From IMG/VR virus record IMGVR_UViG_2695420698_000002: 7,700 nt of DNA; one strand, given 5' to 3'. The translations under genes and the position numbers were made by a program. Positions 1 to 7,700 of this stretch are shown here, in pieces. Origin of the DNA: a virus. Taxonomy: Duplodnaviria > Heunggongvirae > Uroviricota > Caudoviricetes. Position 1 is the first letter of the stretch. Every line of letters begins with the position of its first letter. A model generated the notes under the pieces. It had not been told where the DNA came from and did not search any database. It saw nothing but the letters and a program-made list of their open reading frames with translations.

Positions 1-2126
1 AACGATACCGACGCCGGATCGCCCTGCTGCCCCCACGCATTTACTGCCCGGACTGTCAGCCTGTAGTTCCCCAGCGCCAGTTGTGTGAAGCGGTAAGTGG
101 TTTCCGTCGTCCGGGCCGTGCTGACCAGCCGCTCACTGCCGTCATCCGCTGTTACGGTCAGACGGAGCAGGAAGCTCACGCCCTTCACCACCTTCGGCGT
201 GTCCCAGCGCGCCAGCACCTGATATTCCCCGCTGTCTGCGGTGACTTCGGCAGTCAGGTGCTGCACCGCTGGCGGCGTGACACCATTCACCGTGCCGCTC
301 TGGTCGCCGTCAAAGTGCGCCCCGTTATCCACGATGGCTTCTTTTTCCGGCACATGCTGCACGGCGGTGATGGCATACGTGCCGTCGTCGTTCTCACGGA
401 TACTCACGCAGCGGAACAATCGCTGGTGCAGCGTCGGCAGCTTCAGCCCCCACACGCTGTATTCAGCAACACCGTCAGGAACACGGCTCACTTTTACCTT
501 CACGCCGTCGGTGACGGACTGGACCTCCACGCTGACCGGATTCCCCTGCCCGTCAACCAGGCTTATCAGCGTGGTGCCGGAGGATGGCAGCGTGATTTCA
601 CGGTCGAGCGTCAGCGTCCGGGTCTGGCTGTTCACCGCCAGCACGCGCCCGCCGGTGCGGATACCGGCATAGTCATCATCGCAGATTTCAATGACATCGC
701 CCGGTACATGACGAAGCCCTTCAGCACCCACGCTGAAATCCACGGTCTGCGTCTCCAGCAGTTCCGTTTTAATCAGCCACAGCCCGGCGCGGTGTGCCTG
801 CCCCCGGCTGGTACAGCCAAAGGCATCCATCTTCGTGACGTTACGACCGTAACGGACAATGGCCTGCGTATCCTCCACAAGCTCTGTCGCCGTCTCCCAG
901 CCGTTATCCGGGTCAATCCAGTTCACCTCAACGGCATTATGGCGGTCTTTCAGGGCGCTGAAACTGTAGCGGAACGGCGCGCCATCATCCGGCATCACCA
1001 CATTACTGCGGTTATAGGCCCACACCTTATCCGACTGTCGGTCCTGCACGAACGTCAGCGTCTGCCCGTTCCATACCGGCATACAGCGCATCGCCGAGCA
1101 GAAATCACTGAGCACATCCCACGCCTTGCGCTGTGTGGTCAGCCAGGCATTACAGGTGATGCGCGGCTCCGTGCTGCCAAAGCCGTCCGGCACCGACTGG
1201 TCACAGTACTGGCCGATGACATACAGCGCCCATTTATCCACATCTGCCGCACCAAGACGTTTCCCCATGCCATAGCGCGGATGGGTCAGCATATCCCACA
1301 GACACCAGGCCATGTTGTTGCTGTATGCCGGTTTTAACGTTCCGTCCCAGATACCGCTGTATTGCCGCGTCTGCGGATTATAGTTCGACGGCACCTGCAG
1401 AATGCGCCCGCGAAGATGATAATTACGGCTCACCTGCTGGCTGCCGAACTGCTCCGAATCCACCTGTACGCCGACCAGTGCCGTGTTCGGGTAGCACTGT
1501 TTCACATCGATGATTTCGGTGTATGACGACCAGAGCGTTTTGTTCTGCAGCTGGTCTGTGGTGCTGTCCGGTGTCATCCTGCGCATCCGGATATTAAACG
1601 GGCGCGGCGGCAGGTTATCCACCACCACCGAGGCCAGATACTGCGAGGTGGTTTTGCCCTTAATGGTGATGTCTTTTTCCGTCACCCAGCCACCGTTACG
1701 CTGTATCTGAACCAGCAGGCGAACTTCAGACGGATTCCTGTCTCCCTTTGAGGTGGTTTCCACCAGTGCCTGTACACCGAAGGTAAAACGCAGTCGGTCA
1801 ATGTTTGCCGACGTGATGGTCCGGGTGATCGGCGTGTCATATTTCACTTCCGTACCCAGCACCGTCTCGGAGCCGGAGGATTCAAATCCCTCCGGCGGTG
1901 ACTGCTCCTGCTCACCTGCCCGGAACACCACCGTGACGCCGGAGATGTTGGTATTCCCCTCACTGTCCAGCACCGGCGTACTGTTCAGCAGCACGCTTTT
2001 TAATCCATCCACCGGACCTTCAACCGGCCCTTCGCTGATGGCATCGATCACACTCAGCAGCTGCGTGGACTTCAGGTTGTCCTTCGCTTCGCGCGGGGTA
2101 TGCCCCTTACTGCTGCCTTTACCCAT
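1..2126 (-). CDS. J: Tail-tip host-specificity / central tail fibre protein (lambda gpJ-type), N-terminal ~708 codons; 3' end beyond window start
   Basis: Minus-strand ATG at 2126 (plus 'cat' 2124-2126) encodes MGKGSSKGHTPREAKDNLKSTQ. The ORF track lists no minus-strand ORF anywhere in 1-2186, consistent with this frame staying open to the window edge. My own translation of the reverse complement gives PAYSNNMAWCLWDMLTHPRYGMG (~1270-1340) and LTVRAVNAWGQQGDPASVSF (1-59), both matching lambda gpJ as I recall it. gpJ is 1132 aa, so the receptor-binding C-terminus is outside the window. Confidence 0.9.
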   Translation of the reverse strand, partial: MGKGSSKGHTPREAKDNLKSTQLLSVIDAISEGPVEGPVDGLKSVLLNSTPVLDSEGNTNISGVTVVFRAGEQEQSPPEGFESSGSETVLGTEVKYDTPITRTITSANIDRLRFTFGVQALVETTSKGDRNPSEVRLLVQIQRNGGWVTEKDITIKGKTTSQYLASVVVDNLPPRPFNIRMRRMTPDSTTDQLQNKTLWSSYTEIIDVKQCYPNTALVGVQVDSEQFGSQQVSRNYHLRGRILQVPSNYNPQTRQYSGIWDGTLKPAYSNNMAWCLWDMLTHPRYGMGKRLGAADVDKWALYVIGQYCDQSVPDGFGSTEPRITCNAWLTTQRKAWDVLSDFCSAMRCMPVWNGQTLTFVQDRQSDKVWAYNRSNVVMPDDGAPFRYSFSALKDRHNAVEVNWIDPDNGWETATELVEDTQAIVRYGRNVTKMDAFGCTSRGQAHRAGLWLIKTELLETQTVDFSVGAEGLRHVPGDVIEICDDDYAGIRTGGRVLAVNSQTRTLTLDREITLPSSGTTLISLVDGQGNPVSVEVQSVTDGVKVKVSRVPDGVAEYSVWGLKLPTLHQRLFRCVSIRENDDGTYAITAVQHVPEKEAIVDNGAHFDGDQSGTVNGVTPPAVQHLTAEVTADSGEYQVLARWDTPKVVKGVSFLLRLTVTADDGSERLVSTARTTETTYRFTQLALGNYRLTVRAVNAWGQQGDPASVS

Positions 2127-2147
2127 TCGTCATGCTCCATAAACGAT

Positions 2148-2168
2148 AAAACCGCCCGGAGGCGATTT
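2148..2168 (-). other. Imperfect hairpin in the I'-J intergenic spacer (copy 1)
   Basis: aaaaccgcc-cgga-ggcgattt: a 4-bp perfect GC core with flanking A/T pairs and one C.A mismatch. It sits in the ~60-nt gap between the I' stop (2187-2189) and the J start (2126). Confidence 0.3.
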
Positions 2169-2186
2169 CACATAAAACATTTTGCA

Positions 2187-2898
2187 TCAGCGACCAATCA
2201 CCACAACCTGACCACCGTCCCCTTCGTCTGCCGTGCTGATCTCCTGAGATACCACACGTGACCCCACGCGCATTTCACCATACAGAACAGGCATAACATT
2301 GCCCTGGGCAACCATGTTATCCAGTGAGGAGAAATAGGTGTTCTGCTTACCGTTATCCGTTGTCTGTGTGCGGGGAGTTCTGGCTTTCGGTGCCAGCATC
2401 TGAGCCACACCGCCGAGCACCATACTGGCACCGAGAGAAAACAGAATGCCGGTCATACCACCGGCACCAATGGCAGCCCCCCATGCTGCNNNNNNNNNNN
2501 NNNNNNNNNNNNNNNNNNNNNNNNNCTGCAAGGGTGGCTCCGGCGGTAAAGAATGATCCGGCAATGGCGGCTGCTCCCAGGACAATCTGGAATACACCAC
2601 CTGACTTGGCCCCGGCGACTCTGGGAACAATATGAATCACAGCGCCGTCAGGCAGAGCCTCATGTAACTGTGCCGTTAATCCGGACGTGCTAACATCCTG
2701 CCCGGCAATACGCACCTGATACCAGCCGTCGCTCAGCTTCTGACGAAACGCAGGGAGCTGTGTGGCCATCGCCCGGATGGCTTCGGCACCCGTTTTCACA
2801 CGAAGGTCGATGCGGCGGCCAAATCGTTGCAAATCCCCGTAAAGGCAGATGCGTGCCATGCCCGGTGACGCCAGAGGGAGTGTGTGCGTCGCTGCCAT
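2187..2898 (-). CDS. I: Tail-tip assembly protein I (lambda gpI-type, 223-aa allele), interrupted by a 36-nt N run
   Basis: Start at 2898 encodes MAATHTLPLASPGMARICLYGDLQRFGRRIDL; stop is TGA (plus 'tca' 2187-2189); C-terminus is ...ISTADEGDGGQVVVIGR. The frames either side of the N run differ by one, but the flanks overlap by 4 nt (ctgc). Removing the Ns and one ctgc gives a 672-nt ORF reading ...GATLAAWGAAIGAGG..., which is contiguous gpI. Confidence 0.8.
2490..2525. other. Run of 36 N (gap or masked bases) inside I'
   Basis: Directly visible; flanked by a duplicated ctgc. Confidence 0.99.
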
Positions 2899-3422
2899 TT
2901 GTCGGTATACCTCTCTCGTTTGCTCAGTTGTTCAGGAATATGGTGCAGCAGCTCGCCGTCACCACAGTAAATGGCGGCATGATTCGGCACCGATGAACCA
3001 AAACAGCACAGCAGCACATCGCCCGGCTGCGCCGCTGACAACGGCACCTGATACAGCCCTGTGGCCTCCAGATTATCCAGATAGAGATTCTGACCGTGAC
3101 GCCACCAGTCATCCTCACGATGAAAATCCGGCATCTCAATCCCCGCCAGATGGTAAGCATCCCGGAACAGCGTGTAACAGTCCGTCACCCCGTGCTCAAA
3201 GCGCCGCCCGGTAAGATGTGGCACACAGCGGAACTTGTGAATCGCCCCCCGGCAGACCAGCCACCACGGCAAATCACTCTGCACCTGCAGCCGCCGGTCG
3301 GCCTCACTCAGCCAGGGCAGACCACCGGGGTGGCTGTGGACCAGTGCCACAATCTCACCCTGCATCTCTGCCTGCAGCCAGTCTTCCGGCGACATACGGA
3401 AATACGCCTCCGGCTCACCGGA
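2796..3422 (-). pseudogene. K: Tail-tip assembly protein K (gpK-type, MPN/JAMM + NlpC/P60), C-terminal ~208 codons, fused in frame to a J N-terminal fragment
   Basis: Lower part of the 334-aa ORF 2796..3800. After the X it reads SGEPEAYFRMSPEDWL...HSHPGGLPWLSEAD...GVTDCYTLFRDAYHLAG...ASTFV, which is collinear with residues ~40-247 of the full K copy at 4400..5143. Its 3' end overlaps the I' start, as in the intact copy. Confidence 0.75.
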
Positions 3423-3423
3423 N
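3423..3423. other. Single ambiguous base (N) at the J-fragment / K-fragment junction
   Basis: 'ccggaNgaggtggtttcc': the left flank matches K (ccggagatatt at ~5030) and the right flank matches J (gaggtggtttcc at ~1750). Confidence 0.95.
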
Positions 3424-3800
3424 GAGGTGGTTTCCACCAGTGCCTGCACACCGAAGGTCAGGCGCAGACGGTCGATGTTTGCCGACGTGATGGTCCGGGT
3501 GATCGGCGTGTCATATTTCACTTCCGTACCCAGCACCGTCTCGGAGCCGGAGGATTCAAAACCCTCCGGCGGTGTCTGCTCCTGCTCACCTGCACGGAAC
3601 ACCACCGTAACACCGGAAAAGTTTGTCTTCCCCTCGCTGTCCAGGACCGGCGTACCGTTCAGCAGCACGCTTTTTAATCCATCCACCGGACCGTCAACCG
3701 GCCCTTCGCTGATGGCATCAATCACACTCAGCAACTGCGTGGATTTCAGGTTGTCCTTCGCTTCGCGCGGGGTATGCCCCTTACTGCTGCCTTTACCCAT
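3424..3800 (-). pseudogene. J: Host-specificity protein J, N-terminal ~126-codon fragment (second, diverged copy)
   Basis: ATG at 3800 encodes MGKGSSKGHTPREAKDNLKSTQLLSVIDAISEGP...RLRLTFGVQALVETT, then switches to K sequence at the N at 3423. It differs from the copy at 1750-2126 by several substitutions, seen in the paired antisense ORFs 1753..2142 and 3427..3816. Confidence 0.75.
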
Positions 3801-3822
3801 TCCTCACGCTCCATAAACGACA

Positions 3823-3842
3823 AAACCGCCCGCAGGCGGTTT
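3823..3842 (-). other. Perfect 8-bp hairpin in the I-J intergenic spacer (copy 2)
   Basis: aaaccgcc-cgca-ggcggttt. On the sense (minus) strand it is followed by TTTTGTCGTTT and lies ~20 nt upstream of the J-fragment ATG. Possible RNA structure or weak attenuator; function not established. Confidence 0.35.
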
Positions 3843-3860
3843 CACATAAAACATTTTGCA

Positions 3861-4502
3861 TCAGCGACCAATCACCACAACCTGACCACCATCCCCTTCG
3901 TCTGCCGTGCTGATCTCCTGAGAAACCACACGTGACCCCACGCGCATTTCACCGTACAGAACGGGCAGAACATTGCCCTGGGCAACCATGTTATCCAGTG
4001 ACGAGAAATACGTGTTCTGCTTACCGTTATCCGTTGTCTGTGTACGGGGAGTTCTGGCTTTCGGTGCCAGCATCTGTGCAACACCGCCAAGCGTCATACT
4101 GGCACCGAGAGAAAACAGCAGATTACTCGCCATAATTCCTACCCCCGGCATCCATATAGCAACCGCCATAACAGCCGCCCCCAGCACCGCCTGAAACACA
4201 CCGCCACTTTTAGCTCCCACCAGACGCGGTACTATGTGGATCACTGCACCATTTGCCAGCGGCTCATTAAGACGGGCAGACAATTCGGTTTCACCTGCAT
4301 CACGCCCGGCAATGCGCACCTGATACCAGCCGTCACTCAGTTTCTGACGAAACGCCGGGAGCTGTGTGGCCAGTGCCCGGATGGCTTCAGCCCCCGTTTT
4401 CACACGAAGGTCGATGCGGCGACCAAATCGTTGTAAATCCCCGTAAAGGCAGATGCGCGCCATGCCCGGTGACGCCAGAGGGAGTGTGTGCGTCGCTGCC
4501 AT
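3861..4502 (-). CDS. I: Tail-tip assembly protein I (gpI-type), 213-aa allele
   Basis: Complete ORF from MAATHTLPLASPGMARICLYGDLQRFGRRIDL to ...ISTADEGDGGQVVVIGR. It is 10 aa shorter than the I' allele, with the difference in the hydrophobic Gly/Ala-rich central segment. Confidence 0.9.
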   Translation of the reverse strand: MAATHTLPLASPGMARICLYGDLQRFGRRIDLRVKTGAEAIRALATQLPAFRQKLSDGWYQVRIAGRDAGETELSARLNEPLANGAVIHIVPRLVGAKSGGVFQAVLGAAVMAVAIWMPGVGIMASNLLFSLGASMTLGGVAQMLAPKARTPRTQTTDNGKQNTYFSSLDNMVAQGNVLPVLYGEMRVGSRVVSQEISTADEGDGGQVVVIGR

Positions 4503-5143
4503 TTGTCGGTGTACCTCTCTCGTTTGCTCAGTTGTTCAGGAATATGGTGCAGCAGCTCGCCGTCACCACAGTAAATGGCGGCATGATTCGGCACCGATGA
4601 ACCAAAACAGCACAGCAGCACATCGCCCGGCTGTGCCTCTGTCAGTGCGACACGGTAAAAACCCGTCACCTCCATATTGTCAAGATAGAGATTCTGACCG
4701 TTACGCCACCAGTCATCCCCGCGATGAAAATCCGGCATCTCAATCCCTGCCAGATGATAAGCATCCCGGAACAGCGTGTAACAGTCCGTCACCCCGTGCT
4801 CAAAGCGCCGCCCGGTGAGATGCGGCACACAGCGGAACTTGTGAATCGCCCCCCGGCAGACCAGCCACCACGGCAAATCACTCTGCACCTGCAGCCGCCG
4901 GTCGGCCTCACTCAGCCAGGGCAGACCACCGGGGTGGCTGTGGACCAGTGCCACAATCTCACCCTGCATCTCTGCCTGCAGCCAGTCTTCCGGCGACATA
5001 CGGAAATACGCCTCCGGCTCACCGGAGATATTCACGCAGGGGAAATATCTTTCCCCCTCCGGCGTTCTTACCACGAAGCCGCACGACTCCGCTGGAGCAC
5101 ATCGCCGGGCGTGCGCCAGAATCGCTGATTCTGTCTCTGTCAT
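4400..5143 (-). CDS. K: Tail-tip assembly protein K (gpK-type), 247-codon ORF with MPN/JAMM motif and NlpC/P60-like Cys/His region
   Basis: Starts MTQTESAILAHARRCAPAESCGFVV. JAMM signature H-x-H-x7-S-x2-D is present as HSHPGGLPWLSEAD (residues ~68-81). Cys/His-containing region GVTDCYTLFRDAYH...HAAIYCGDGELLHH follows. The ATG lies 5 nt downstream of the L' stop. The ORF overlaps the I start by ~103 nt in another frame. Confidence 0.9.
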   Translation of the reverse strand: MTETESAILAHARRCAPAESCGFVVRTPEGERYFPCVNISGEPEAYFRMSPEDWLQAEMQGEIVALVHSHPGGLPWLSEADRRLQVQSDLPWWLVCRGAIHKFRCVPHLTGRRFEHGVTDCYTLFRDAYHLAGIEMPDFHRGDDWWRNGQNLYLDNMEVTGFYRVALTEAQPGDVLLCCFGSSVPNHAAIYCGDGELLHHIPEQLSKRERYTDKWQRRTHSLWRHRAWRASAFTGIYNDLVAASTFV

Positions 5144-5148
5144 GGGAT

Positions 5149-5847
5149 TTACTGCGAAAGTTTGTTAATGGAAAGGAAGCCGCCAAAGTTGCCGACGTTA
5201 TTGCGAAACTTACAGCCACTCAGGCATTTGCTGCATTTATCCTTCGTGATGTCGGACGTTGGCTGGTCATATTCATCCGCGACCGCCGGACCGTGATAAC
5301 CGCACTCATCGCCGCGATAGGTCCAGGTGCAGGTGTTGGCCAGCATGATACGTCCCGGAAAAACAGCGCCATCTGTTTCCGTCGGCGTGGACAGTACAAA
5401 AGAGGCACTCACCGCGCTCAGTTCGCTGCACTGCTCAATGCGCCAGCGGCTGATCACCTCCTGCTCCGGATCGGCGTCACTGTTTCCGTTGACGAAGTTC
5501 ACCGCATCCAGAAAACGGGCGTAAACCTTACGCCGGACCACCGTTCCGCCGACCAGACTCTGTAGATCTTCCGCCATCCCGGTGACCATACCGTACAGGT
5601 TAGAAACCATCAGCGTGGGGCGCGTACTGGTGCCTTTGCCATTCAGTTCAAAACCACTCCCCTGAATGGGATACGGCTGATACTGTCGCCCCTGCCAGGT
5701 GACCGGCTCACCTTTTTCGTTCTGCTCATTACAGAAAAAATAACGTTCTCCACCGACCTCTGTCAGATCGATTTCCCAGAGCACCACGCTGGCCGACTGC
5801 TCCGCACGGGTGCATTCATTCAGTGTTTCCTGCCGGATATCCTGCAT
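5149..5847 (-). CDS. L: Tail-tip assembly protein L (lambda gpL-type), 232 aa
   Basis: MQDIRQETLNECTRAEQSASVVLWEIDLTEVGGERYFFCNEQNEKGEPVTWQGRQYQ...CSKCLSGC...FLSINKLSQ. Length and sequence match lambda gpL as I recall it. The C-terminal cysteine cluster is present. The start overlaps the M' stop (TGATG). Confidence 0.92.
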   Translation of the reverse strand: MQDIRQETLNECTRAEQSASVVLWEIDLTEVGGERYFFCNEQNEKGEPVTWQGRQYQPYPIQGSGFELNGKGTSTRPTLMVSNLYGMVTGMAEDLQSLVGGTVVRRKVYARFLDAVNFVNGNSDADPEQEVISRWRIEQCSELSAVSASFVLSTPTETDGAVFPGRIMLANTCTWTYRGDECGYHGPAVADEYDQPTSDITKDKCSKCLSGCKFRNNVGNFGGFLSINKLSQ

Positions 5848-6125
5848 CAGTTCACCACCTGTTCAAACTCTGCGCTGAACTCAACACGCAGCATACTGAC
5901 CCGCGACGACCATTTTGCGCAGGTCACCTTTATCTGCCGCCACTCATAAGGCGGCGTCCACAGAAAGGCTTTCCAGCCCCCGTGCTCTTCCAGAAACGAC
6001 TCCAGTACCATGGCCTCCTCACGGGGGACAGAAAGCGTCACGCTGTACGTTTTCAGGTTGGCATTCAGCCCGGCAGGCGCTCGCTGGGAATAGCCATCAC
6101 CAAAGCGCACCTTTCTTACAGAAGG
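5847..6125 (-). pseudogene. M: Tail-tip assembly protein M, diverged allele, C-terminal ~92 codons; 5' end replaced by N run and K sequence
   Basis: PSVRKVRFGDGYSQRAPAGLNANLKTYSVTLSVPREEAMVLESFLEEHGGWKAFLWTPPYEWRQIKVTCAKWSSRVSMLRVEFSAEFEQVVN aligns collinearly with residues ~18-109 of the M at 7261..7590 (shared GDGY, TYSV, FLExHGG, WTPPY, KW, FEQVV) but with many substitutions. Stop is TGA at 5847-5849. Confidence 0.7.
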
Positions 6126-6136
6126 NNNNNNNNNNN
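6126..6136. other. Run of 11 N at the K-fragment / M'-fragment junction
   Basis: Directly visible. The right flank (ccggcatctcaatccctgcc) is K sequence, identical to ~4733-4752; the left flank is M' sequence. Confidence 0.99.
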
Positions 6137-6548
6137 CCGGCATCTCAATCCCTGCCAGATGATAAGCATCCCGGAACAGCGTGTAACAGTCCGTCACCCC
6201 GTGCTCAAAGCGCCGCCCGGTGAGATGCGGCACACAGCGGAACTTGTGAATCGCCCCCCGGCAGACCAGCCACCACGGCAAATCACTCTGCACCTGCAGC
6301 CGCCGGTCAGCCTCACTCAGCCAGGGCAGACCACCGGGATGACTGTGGACCAGCGCCACAATCTCACCCTGCATTTGTGCCCGCAGCCAGTCCTCCGGAG
6401 CCATCCGGAACCGTTCCTCCGGCTCACCGGAGATATTCTCGCTGGGAAGATACCTGTCTCCCTCCGGCGTTCTTACCACGAAGCCACACGACTCCGCTGG
6501 CGCACATCGCCGGGCGTGCGCCAGAATCGCTGATTCTGTCTGTGTCAT
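6137..6548 (-). pseudogene. K: Tail-tip assembly protein K, N-terminal ~138 codons (diverged allele), truncated at the N run and fused in frame to the M' fragment
   Basis: ATG at 6548 (plus 'cat' 6546-6548), 4 nt after the L stop. Encodes MTQTESAILAHARRCAPAESCGFVVRTPEGDRYLPSENISGEPEERFRMAPEDWLRAQMQ...HSHPGGLPWLSEAD...HLAGIEMP and then runs into the Ns. It differs from the K at 4400..5143 at several residues. Confidence 0.75.
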
Positions 6549-6552
6549 GGAT

Positions 6553-7251
6553 TTACTGAGAAAGTTTATTGATGGAAAGGAAACCGCCGAAATTACCGGT
6601 ATTGTTGCGCAACTCACACCCGCGCATACACTTGCTGCATTTGTCCTTCCGGATATCCGTCGTTGGTTTGTCGAACTCGTCAGCCACTGCCCTGCCCGTG
6701 TAACCACACTCATCAGAACGGTAAGTCCACATACAGGTATTCGCCAGCATGATACGCCCCGGGAAAACCGCGCCATCCGTCTCCGTTGGTGTGGCCAGCA
6801 CAAAAGAGGCACTGACCGCGCTCAGTTCGCTGCACTGCTCGATGCGCCAGCGGCTGATCACCTCCTGTTCCGGATCGGCGTCGCTGTTTCCGTTGACGAA
6901 GTTCACCGCATCCAGAAAACGGGCGTAAACCTTACGCCTGACCACCGTTCCGCCGACCAGACTCTGCAGGTCTTCCGCCATCCCGGTGACCATTCCGTGC
7001 AGGTTAGAAACCGTCAGTGTCGGACGGGCAGCACTGCCCTTGCCGTTCAGTTCAAATCCCGTCCCCTGAATGGGGTATGCCTGATACTGCCGCCCCTGCC
7101 AGGTAACCGGCTCACCTTTTTCGTTCTGCTCATTACAGAAAAAATAACGTTCTCCACCGACCTCTGTCAGATCGATTTCCCAGAGCACCACCTGGGCTGA
7201 CTGAGTGAGGCGTGTCGTCTCATGATGTGTTTCCTGTGGAATATCCTGCAT
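6553..7251 (-). CDS. L: Tail-tip assembly protein L (gpL-type), 232 aa, diverged allele
   Basis: MQDIPQETHHETTRLTQSAQVVLWEIDLTEVGGERYFFCNEQNEKGEPVTWQGRQYQ...CSKCMRGC...FLSINKLSQ. Same length as L', with substitutions clustered at the N-terminus and around the cysteine region. Confidence 0.9.
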   Translation of the reverse strand: MQDIPQETHHETTRLTQSAQVVLWEIDLTEVGGERYFFCNEQNEKGEPVTWQGRQYQAYPIQGTGFELNGKGSAARPTLTVSNLHGMVTGMAEDLQSLVGGTVVRRKVYARFLDAVNFVNGNSDADPEQEVISRWRIEQCSELSAVSASFVLATPTETDGAVFPGRIMLANTCMWTYRSDECGYTGRAVADEFDKPTTDIRKDKCSKCMRGCELRNNTGNFGGFLSINKLSQ

Positions 7252-7260
7252 CAGAGCCTC

Positions 7261-7590
7261 CTATGCCACGACCTGTTCAAAATCTGCCGTTATGGTTACC
7301 CACAACGCCCCCACGCTTGCCGACCATTTACGACAAACCACCCTGATCGGCTTCCAGTCATAAGGTGGCGTCCACTGAAATGCGCGGACGCCACCGTGCC
7401 GTTCCAGAAAGGCTTTTAAAAATGGGTGTTCACCTTTACGAACACGTATCTTCACGCTGTAAGTCGACAACTGGTTATTCAGTCCCGCCGCACGACGCTG
7501 TTCATAACCATCGCCCAGCTTCACTGTCACCACTTTCGGCTCTGATACCACATTCATATCCGGGCGCACTTTCCAGTGAAACGTCTCCAT
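7261..7590 (-). CDS. M: Tail-tip assembly protein M (lambda gpM-type), 109 aa
   Basis: METFHWKVRPDMNVVSEPKVVTVKLGDGYEQRRAAGLNNQLSTYSVKIRVRKGEHPFLKAFLERHGGVRAFQWTPPYDWKPIRVVCRKWSASVGALWVTITADFEQVVA. Length matches lambda gpM. Position is between the H end and L. Confidence 0.9.
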   Translation of the reverse strand: METFHWKVRPDMNVVSEPKVVTVKLGDGYEQRRAAGLNNQLSTYSVKIRVRKGEHPFLKAFLERHGGVRAFQWTPPYDWKPIRVVCRKWSASVGALWVTITADFEQVVA

Positions 7591-7700
7591 TACCGGTATG
7601 CTCCACTTAACCGGCCACCATCACGGGCCTGCTGTTGCATAAAGTCCGCGGCCGCTTTTTTCCCGAGGTCATAAACCACCTTCAGGGCAGCCGGACCTAT
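7590..7700 (-). CDS. H: Tape-measure protein (gpH-type), last 36 codons plus stop; 5' end beyond window
   Basis: My translation of the only open minus-strand frame gives IGPAALKVVYDLGKKAAADFMQQQARDGGRLSGAYR, ending in a TAA that shares its last A with the M start (TAATG). The other two frames have stops within the first 20 nt. Assignment is by synteny (H precedes M in lambda); the peptide was not matched from memory. Confidence 0.6.
   Translation of the reverse strand: MGPAALKVVYDLGKKAAADFMQQQARDGGRLSGAYR

Follow-up and report, generated by a model that had tools for sequence, protein, structure and literature searches.

The 7,700 nt of DNA analysed in this work, which as a whole are referred to as the window, are very probably a draft scaffold in which repeats induced a mis-assembly, and not a tandem array carried by a genome. 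According to sequence comparisons, the window appears to hold pieces of two lambda-like prophages of a Shigella sonnei-type genome, designated P1 and P2, and the biology is ordinary, with two normal lambdoid tail modules and nothing new. The entire window corresponds, Ns included, to the public draft scaffold CXCP01000192.1 (7,700 nt; assembly GCA_001257415.1).

Homologues of gpM, gpL, gpK (Prok-JAB and NLPC_P60), gpI and gpJ were all found in the window with Pfam, all with matches that exceed the curated cut-offs (bit scores of 133 for Phage_min_tail, 323 and 336 for Phage_tail_L, and 84 for Lambda_tail_I). These five gene families with full-strength matches are those of the lambda tail-tip module (gpH-gpM-gpL-gpK-gpI-gpJ). 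However, the scaffold as deposited does not keep a single H-M-L-K-I-J order, and its minus-strand order is H'-M-L-K' / 11 N / M'-L-K-I-J' / 1 N / K'-I-J. The initial annotation had described an order restarting twice, from K into M' and from J into K, and the same coordinates were obtained by Pfam and self-BLAST; these restarts would be a property of the scaffold rather than of a phage. The genes and the ambiguous positions are the following:

7700-7591, minus strand: end of the tape-measure gene H, in the piece called contig A below
7590-7261, minus strand: M_a, full-length Phage_min_tail
7251-6553, minus strand: L_a, Phage_tail_L
6548-6137, minus strand: N-terminus of K_a, 137 aa, JAB domain only
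6126-6136: run of 11 N, putative false join from K codon 137 to M codon 17
6125-5847, minus strand: C-terminus of M_b, Phage_min_tail profile positions 17-108
5847-5149, minus strand: L_b, Phage_tail_L
5143-4400, minus strand: K_b, 247 aa, JAB and NlpC/P60
4502-3861, minus strand: I_b, Lambda_tail_I
3800-3424, minus strand: N-terminus of J_b, 125 aa, FNIII-A_GpJ
3423: single N, putative false join from J codon 125 to K codon 40
3422-2796, minus strand: C-terminus of K_c, 208 aa, K codons 40-247
2898-~2178, minus strand: I_c, interrupted by 36 N
2490-2525: run of 36 N, probable spurious gap inside a correct join, with flanks that overlap by 4 nt (ctgc)
2126-1, minus strand: J_c, 708 aa, running off the window end; Phage-tail_3, FNIII-A_GpJ and Ig_J

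These three runs are the only non-ACGT positions of the window, and their addition by masking was rejected because the same Ns are present in the public record. Comparison of the window with itself by BLAST gave four alignments, 4732-5850 with 6137-7254 (88.1% identity), 2694-3422 with 4298-5026 (94.5%), 1750-2444 with 3424-4118 (94.2%) and 3128-3422 with 6137-6431 (93.2%). All of them terminate precisely at N runs, so the restarts are real, as are their positions and the fact that they fall on ambiguous bases, and the earlier placement of the iteration boundaries on N runs, at 6126-6136 and 3423, was borne out. The copies had also been described as diverged alleles, which agrees with their overall identity of 88-95% but not with the stretches abutting the Ns, which are exact duplicates. 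Thus, the end of contig A (6137-6308) is repeated exactly over 172 nt at 4732-4903, and the end of contig C1 (3220-3422) over 203 nt at 4824-5026, both inside the middle contig B. The first duplicate indicates that contig A and the P1 part of contig B are overlapping pieces of one molecule, and the second indicates the same for contig C1 and the P2 part of contig B. A genuine tandem segmental duplication is not what these data resemble, since no defined bases stand at the junctions and the identity between copies in self-BLAST is 88-94.5%.

The reading frame is kept across both putative false joins, and for this reason long fused ORFs run through the Ns. Such continuity would fit a real tandem array of three broken tail modules generated by prophage recombination, with the Ns as short unresolved stretches, but a frame kept at two junctions has a chance of about 1 in 9. 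In addition, both junctions consist of Ns adjoined by exact duplicates of internal sequence, and iterations with 88-95% identity are unlike a recent duplication. Selection as the cause of frame preservation was rejected on account of the same chance and of the junctions being Ns.

When the pieces of the window were re-threaded against finished genomes, they could be assigned as follows:

6137-7700, minus strand: contig A, P1; end of H, M_a, L_a and first 137 K codons
4904-6125, minus strand: contig B, P2-specific part; C-terminus of M_b, L_b and N-terminal part of K
4824-4903, minus strand: contig B, shared core; 80 nt of gene K in which P1 and P2 are identical, site of the apparent parent switch
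3424-4823, minus strand: contig B, P1-specific part; C-terminal part of K, I_b and first 125 J codons
2526-3422, minus strand: contig C1, P2; K codons 40-247 and start of I_c
1-2489, minus strand: contig C2, P2; remainder of I_c and first 708 J_c codons

The real P1 module would thus read 7700-6137 and then 4731-3424. This P1 path (3424-4731 plus 6137-7700; 2,872 nt) gave one ungapped match with 3 mismatches (99.90%) in 10 fetched loci, and with 4 mismatches in L005 and 5 in L022. Among the P1-path loci are CP023645.1 and CP179977.1, which PMC11594029 and PMC12511311 name as S. sonnei. Contig A alone, 1,564 nt long, showed one mismatch to P1 in loci L002-L009, where K runs on normally, and the P1-specific part of contig B truly continues contig A; in CP104423.1 a single prophage encodes both L_a and the exact I_b protein.

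In turn, the real P2 module would read 6125-5027, then 3422-2526 and then 2485-1. The P2 path (1-2485 plus 2526-3422 plus 5027-6125; 4,481 nt) matched loci L011 and L012 without gaps and with 2 mismatches (99.955%). Contig C1, which truly continues the P2 part of contig B, was identical to P2 at 897 of 897 positions (L011 8822-9718), and contig C2 at 2,487 of 2,489, with the P1 base at the two mismatches (1572 and 1578). The run of 36 N lies between these two contigs; C2 ends at position 9715 of L011 and C1 starts at 9718, and once the 36 Ns and one copy of ctgc are taken out, the I ORF is whole again and the match to P2 is ungapped. Thousands of E. coli genomes have this region in colinear form, over 3,382 nt compared with 3,422 in the window. 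The run is located just outside the start of the region delimited in the initial annotation and corresponds to no iteration boundary.

Both re-threaded paths have the canonical H-M-L-K-I-J order and spacing of finished prophages, and every locus retrieved from finished genomes through an exact protein match shows this order intact. The window shares identical L_a, L_b and I_b proteins with the S. sonnei-type prophages P1 and P2, the tail-tip modules (H-M-L-K-I-J) of which are 88-95% identical and have short exact stretches in common. In complete Shigella sonnei-type genomes P1 and P2 are about 690 kb apart. The P1 prophage of CP104423.1 is an IS-riddled remnant at ~1.99 Mb and P2 is intact-looking at ~1.30 Mb, while in JBEAAA010000004.1 both prophages are placed at 1.87 Mb and 2.55 Mb; in the two genomes they share orientation and their gene order is normal. 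The window differs from P1 and P2 of S. sonnei at the five residual mismatches, and five of five carry the base of the other prophage, as expected from cross-talk between paralogues during assembly. The finished genomes used for comparison belong to other strains, and the source strain could differ from them. The initial proposal that contig ends of different lambdoid prophages had been joined is supported by this re-threading, with two sources instead of three alleles. The candidate of three distinct prophage alleles was rejected, since the pieces collapse onto two references and each defined base is explained by one of them.

The middle iteration, earlier taken as one allele, appears from its base-by-base agreement with both references to be a P2/P1 chimera itself (contig B, 3424-6125). 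Positions 4824-6125 showed no mismatch to P2 (L011) and many to P1, whereas 3424-4823 had 2 mismatches to P1 (4557 and 4568, both with the P2 base) versus 118 to P2, and the match to P1 extends over 3424-4903 with 2 mismatches. The parent switch is therefore bounded by the last P2-discordant site (4823) and the first P1-discordant site (4904). The K_b protein is identical to P2 K through residue 141 and to P1 K from residue 59, with one residue excepted. The exact K_b protein was present on one contig only, with no second contig in an index of 153 billion genes, whereas L_a, L_b and I_b had exact matches in 2,352-5,306 blocks each of this index. Contig A carries the P1 sequence entering the core, the core and 92 nt of the P1 sequence leaving it, and contig C1 carries 123 nt of P2 entering, the core and P2 leaving. 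Thus, the window contains both parental routes through the K core in addition to the recombinant route.

Lambdoid prophages are mosaic and recombine at short shared stretches. On this basis contig B could be genuine even with artefactual N joins, as part of a third, naturally mosaic prophage that is P2-like from M to the middle of K and P1-like from there to J, in which case the scaffold would link contigs from three prophages. The established mosaicism of lambdoid prophages, the number of matching places per E. coli genome (median 3, up to 15) and the 80-nt identical stretch at the switch, which is also open to homologous recombination, are in agreement with this possibility. Against it, the hybrid K occurs on no other contig while the exact proteins of its neighbours occur in thousands of blocks, and the two halves of contig B match P1 and P2 themselves and not a third diverged allele. 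Moreover, sequence of contig B to either side of the core is repeated exactly in the terminal stretches of contigs A and C1, which is expected if contig A and the left part of B are one molecule, and the right part of B and contig C1 another. A hybrid produced by recombination between P1 and P2 in direct orientation would be the product of a deletion of about 690 kb, and this is incompatible with both parental routes being present. A third mosaic prophage is therefore considered very unlikely.

With mis-assembly as the preferred explanation, the following course can be proposed. The source genome would be Shigella sonnei-like, with the two lambda-type prophages P1 and P2, and the assembler would have yielded four contigs from the tail region. 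Contig 3424-6125 may have left the 80-nt K core shared by both prophages by the wrong exit, thus fusing the upstream half of P2 (M'-L-K 5') to the downstream half of P1 (K 3'-I-J'). This would leave over the genuine upstream contig of P1 (6137-7700) and the genuine downstream contigs of P2 (2526-3422 and 1-2489), which were presumably placed either side of the chimeric contig with N fillers in between. The four contigs follow one another by start coordinate when they are projected on one shared tail module. The comparisons show which prophage each piece matches, where the parent switches, that contig ends are duplicated and that the junctions are absent from the other genomes searched, whereas we infer which program erred and how, as well as a source strain with the two-prophage layout of the finished genomes.

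The window resembles described short-read misjoins and chimeras (PMC5320598) in having N fillers at the joins, contig ends in paralogous repeats, a path switch inside an exact repeat shorter than the read length and duplicates beside the gaps. In a widely used Illumina pipeline, SSPACE and GapFiller are described as greedy, with false joins possible and N gaps left (PMC5320598). However, the deposited layout implies overlaps (negative gaps) of ~1.4-1.6 kb, which are beyond the tolerance of a standard paired-end scaffolder. A simple paired-end SSPACE route to the A-B-C order was not adopted, because with a 300-500 bp insert such overlaps exceed what the links should permit.

Public gene calls derived from the scaffold are on record. 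One is a J-K fusion of 334 residues that falsely combines FNIII-A_GpJ, JAB and NlpC/P60, another reads through the K'/N/M' junction, and a third is the hybrid K protein, absent elsewhere in the index of 153 billion genes. Such entries seed protein databases with seemingly novel architectures. A diagnosis that requires no reads is provided by re-threading against finished relatives, by exact duplicates located beside Ns and by hybrid proteins restricted to a single record.

The junctions were also searched in other genomes. The 11-N junction, with exact flanks and a gap of 0-30 nt, gave no hit in 185,579 species genomes in a scan that may not match N, and neither junction was found at the window breakpoints among 5,426 complete E. 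coli genomes. The K'-to-M' halves were close together in 2 of these 5,426 genomes, both of them L deletions with normal order. The J'-to-K' halves were close together in 3 of the 5,426, namely a fetched K-to-J deletion with normal order, the unfetched H86 with an equal match pattern, and E. coli FY26. Each junction flank runs on colinearly in lambda gene order in finished genomes, and each segment of the window is colinear in thousands of complete E. coli genomes with a best identity of ~96%, which places the source outside that set. Among species-representative genomes, the exact J_b 54-mer was found only in the soil MAG L001, within a normal module of 92-94% identity, and L001 was rejected as the source.

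A possible precedent for a real tandem array of broken tail modules is FY26 (NZ_CP101741.1, 4146242-4159722), deposited with four partial, diverged M-L-K-I-J' iterations without Ns, including J'-to-K' and J'-to-M adjacencies. It resembles the window in its several diverged partial M-L-K-I-J' iterations and in the J'-to-K' type of junction. In contrast to the window, it lacks Ns, has other breakpoints and four iterations, and is located within a full prophage of a closed chromosome. If genuine, it would indicate that such multi-iteration arrays can exist. Nevertheless, the pieces of the window re-thread without gaps into two normal prophages of many finished genomes, and its breakpoints were present in 0 of the 5,426 complete E. 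coli genomes and, with exact flanks, in none of the species-representative genomes. FY26 itself also shows signs of contig concatenation. A real array in the window is thus regarded as extremely unlikely, and it is highly improbable that the rearranged tail region is real in either form, a third mosaic prophage or a true array of truncated modules with FY26 as a second natural example. The piece boundaries of FY26 contain a 65-nt exact tandem duplicate and an overlap-like duplicate of ~245 nt, and these are the features that suggest concatenation. This RefSeq 'complete' genome is therefore flagged, as it may hold an assembly error of similar type with no Ns to betray it.

The window matches CXCP01000192.1 (7,700 nt; draft assembly GCA_001257415.1) end to end as its exact reverse complement, Ns included, and therefore represents one whole small scaffold built from four contigs, named A (6137-7700), B (3424-6125), C1 (2526-3422) and C2 (1-2489). 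Ambiguous bases are present in three runs, and every recognisable gene is carried by the minus strand. Gene identities were assigned with Pfam, and all matches exceeded the curated cut-offs.

Genes and N runs of the window, in order along the minus strand.
From 7700 (minus strand): tape-measure gene, end only
7590-7261 (minus strand): gpM homologue, full
7251-6553 (minus strand): gpL (L_a)
6548-6137 (minus strand): gpK, first 137 codons, JAB domain only
6126-6136: run of 11 N
6125-5847 (minus strand): second gpM, last 92 codons (Pfam profile positions 17-108)
5847-5149 (minus strand): second gpL (L_b)
5143-4400 (minus strand): gpK, complete (K_b)
4502-3861 (minus strand): gpI (I_b)
3800-3424 (minus strand): gpJ, first 125 codons (J_b)
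3423: single N
3422-2796 (minus strand): third gpK, last 208 codons
After the third gpK (minus strand): gpI, split by 36 N
2490-2525: run of 36 N, inside gpI
2126-1 (minus strand): gpJ, 708 codons, open at the window end

The initial annotation had described three M-L-K-I-J iterations with their boundaries on N runs, and this restarting gene order was borne out by the Pfam order and by self-comparison, in which four repeat pairs (88-94.5% identity) were detected, all four alignments stopping precisely at an N run. The copies had also been considered diverged and not identical, which holds for these repeat pairs but not for exact duplicates of 172 and 203 nt located beside the gaps. The reading frame is kept across both the 11-N and the 1-N junctions (chance of 1 in 9), which is why the public gene calls extend across them.

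When the L_a, L_b and I_b proteins were looked up by exact match, they were found in finished, IS-rich chromosomes about 4.8 Mb in size, two of which, CP023645.1 and CP179977.1, have been assigned to Shigella sonnei in publications (PMC11594029 and PMC12511311). CP104423.1 carries L_b at about 1.30 Mb, within a lambdoid prophage that looks intact (P2), and L_a together with I_b at about 1.99 Mb, within a single prophage riddled with IS elements (P1). The pair is also present in JBEAAA010000004.1, about 686 kb apart. In the finished genomes carrying P1 and P2 the M-L-K-I-J order is normal and both prophages have the same orientation. Base-by-base comparison revealed 1 mismatch in 1,564 between contig A and P1, 0 in 897 between C1 and P2, 2 in 2,489 between C2 and P2, and, for contig B, 0 mismatches to P2 at 4824-6125 and 2 to P1 at 3424-4903.

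When the pieces were joined in the order of the finished prophages, 3424-4731 plus 6137-7700 gave a single ungapped 2,872-nt match to P1, with 3 mismatches in ten P1 loci (4 and 5 in the loci L005 and L022, respectively). The joined segments 1-2485, 2526-3422 and 5027-6125 aligned to P2 as one block of 4,481 nt, without a gap and with 2 mismatches. At each of the five remaining differences the window has the other prophage's base, that of P1 at 1572 and 1578 on the P2 path and that of P2 at 4557, 4568 and 7153 on the P1 path, and P1 or P2 therefore explains all defined bases of the window. Five-of-five other-parent sites hardly ever arise by random mutation; they would derive either from cross-copy consensus errors in the assembly or from gene conversion between P1 and P2. 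The 36-N run hides no sequence: on P2 its two flanks share a 4-nt overlap (ctgc), and without the Ns the gpI ORF is intact again; it is a spurious, harmless gap.

The three iterations are thus very probably an assembly artefact and not a real feature. The earlier proposal of a scaffold of contig ends from different lambdoid prophages is supported by the ungapped matches to P1 and P2 and by the absence of the window's junctions from the genomes searched; more than one prophage did contribute, but the pieces collapse onto two sources and not three, the middle contig being chimeric. The genes are typical of the lambda tail-tip module, with the same gene families, and the prophages are known S. 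sonnei-type ones; the re-threaded paths follow the finished-prophage order, whereas the deposited scaffold restarts.

IS3-family and IS1 transposases (~5600-7300 and ~15000-16200 in L002-L009, loci from finished S. sonnei-type genomes) bracket the P1 tail module, and head and tail-shaft genes are missing, so that P1 is a decayed remnant. According to the block-length distribution, most draft assemblies have L_a on contigs of 5-10 kb, which is probably explained by this decay and IS bracketing.

One half of contig B corresponds to P2 and the other to P1, and the parent changes within 80 nt (4824-4903) identical in both; accordingly, the K_b protein equals P2 K up to residue 141 and P1 K from residue 59, save one residue. 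Contig A crosses this shared core and continues into 92 nt of P1-specific downstream sequence, and C1 begins in P2-specific sequence 123 nt upstream of the core, the window thus holding both parental routes. That contig B comes from a genuine third, mosaic prophage and that the N joins alone are false is very improbable, because the exact K_b protein was found on no contig of a large gene index other than CXCP01000192.1 (its neighbours' exact proteins were present in 2,352-5,306 blocks), both halves of contig B match P1 and P2 themselves (with an identity described as perfect, 2 mismatches being located in the P1 half), and the core-side ends of A and C1 repeat internal contig B sequence exactly, over 172 and 203 nt, respectively. 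Because the chromosome carries P1 and P2 as direct repeats, a genuine P2-in/P1-out hybrid would have to come from a deletion of about 690 kb, and it would be incompatible with both parental routes unless a third copy were present. Contig B is best explained as a chimera of P2 and P1, not as a third prophage.

In none of the finished genomes examined do the two flanks of the 11-N run, or those of the 1-N run, lie next to each other. A search for the exact flanks (0-30 nt gap) in 185,579 species-representative genomes, by a scan that may not match N characters, yielded 0 matches. One species representative, the soil MAG 'Proteobacteria bacterium CTSoil_132' (scaffold_26, 92.5 kb, JAGTSE010000010.1), carries an Escherichia/Shigella-type lambdoid tail module with 92-94% identity to the window and an exact 54-mer of J_b. 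Thousands of complete E. coli genomes carry each window segment in colinear form with the usual lambda gene order, but the closest identity is only about 96%, and therefore the source is absent from this set. With junction-spanning queries, both halves were nearby in only 2 and 3 of 5,426 complete E. coli genomes. Three of these five were fetched, and all are genuine-looking prophage remnants with an internal deletion and normal gene order.

Fetched E. coli loci with both junction halves nearby.
L028 3418-3582: OU342919.1
L030 3416-4090: CP025840.1
L029 2390-3836: CP104123.1

A truncated L adjoins M in two of them and a partial K adjoins a partial J, without I, in one; these few matches are due to such internal deletions. 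Another, unfetched genome shows a match pattern like that of deletion remnants. A real tandem array of tail modules is likewise very improbable, being contradicted by the Ns at the junctions with exact duplicates beside them, the divergence among copies and the absence of these junctions elsewhere.

The fifth genome, E. coli FY26 (RefSeq 'complete', NZ_CP101741.1 4146242-4159722, corresponding to L031 8243-21723), contains four partial tail-module iterations without Ns, described as "89-96% diverged", in the order H-M-L-K-I-J' / M-L-K(frameshifted)-I-J' / K-I-J' / K'-I-hyp-J'..J. Its piece boundaries include an exact tandem duplicate of 65 nt (L031 12409-12473/12474-12538) and a second duplicate, of about 245 nt, that resembles an overlap (L031 18922-19166/19157-19400), and the colinear J'-to-K' adjacency was found in FY26 alone among the 5,426 genomes. 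This array is probably the same class of repeat mis-assembly as the window.

Concerning the origin of the artefact, a short exact repeat within K would have led the assembler to pair the wrong entrance and exit, and the left-over true partners would then have been chained onto the chimeric contig. In locus coordinates on one tail module, contigs A, B, C1 and C2 start at 7552, 7723, 8822 and 9715, exactly their order in the scaffold, which suggests that a layout step aligned the overlapping, paralogous contigs to a common axis and output them one after another, separated by filler Ns. According to the description of one Illumina pipeline in wide use, SSPACE and GapFiller work greedily, may join sequences falsely and leave gaps of Ns (PMC5320598). 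Overlaps of 1.4-1.6 kb, as implied here, ought to be rejected by a standard paired-end scaffolder.

Three public gene calls on CXCP01000192.1 are likely spurious database entries.

Public gene calls.
2796-3800 (minus strand): J(1-125)-X-K(40-247) fusion, 334 aa, with FNIII-A_GpJ, JAB and NlpC/P60 domains
5847-6548 (minus strand): call across the K'/N/M' junction
81-1337 (plus strand): antisense ORF inside gpJ, 418 aa

The chimeric proteins of CXCP01000192.1 already sit in public protein collections, which is a concern for database hygiene.
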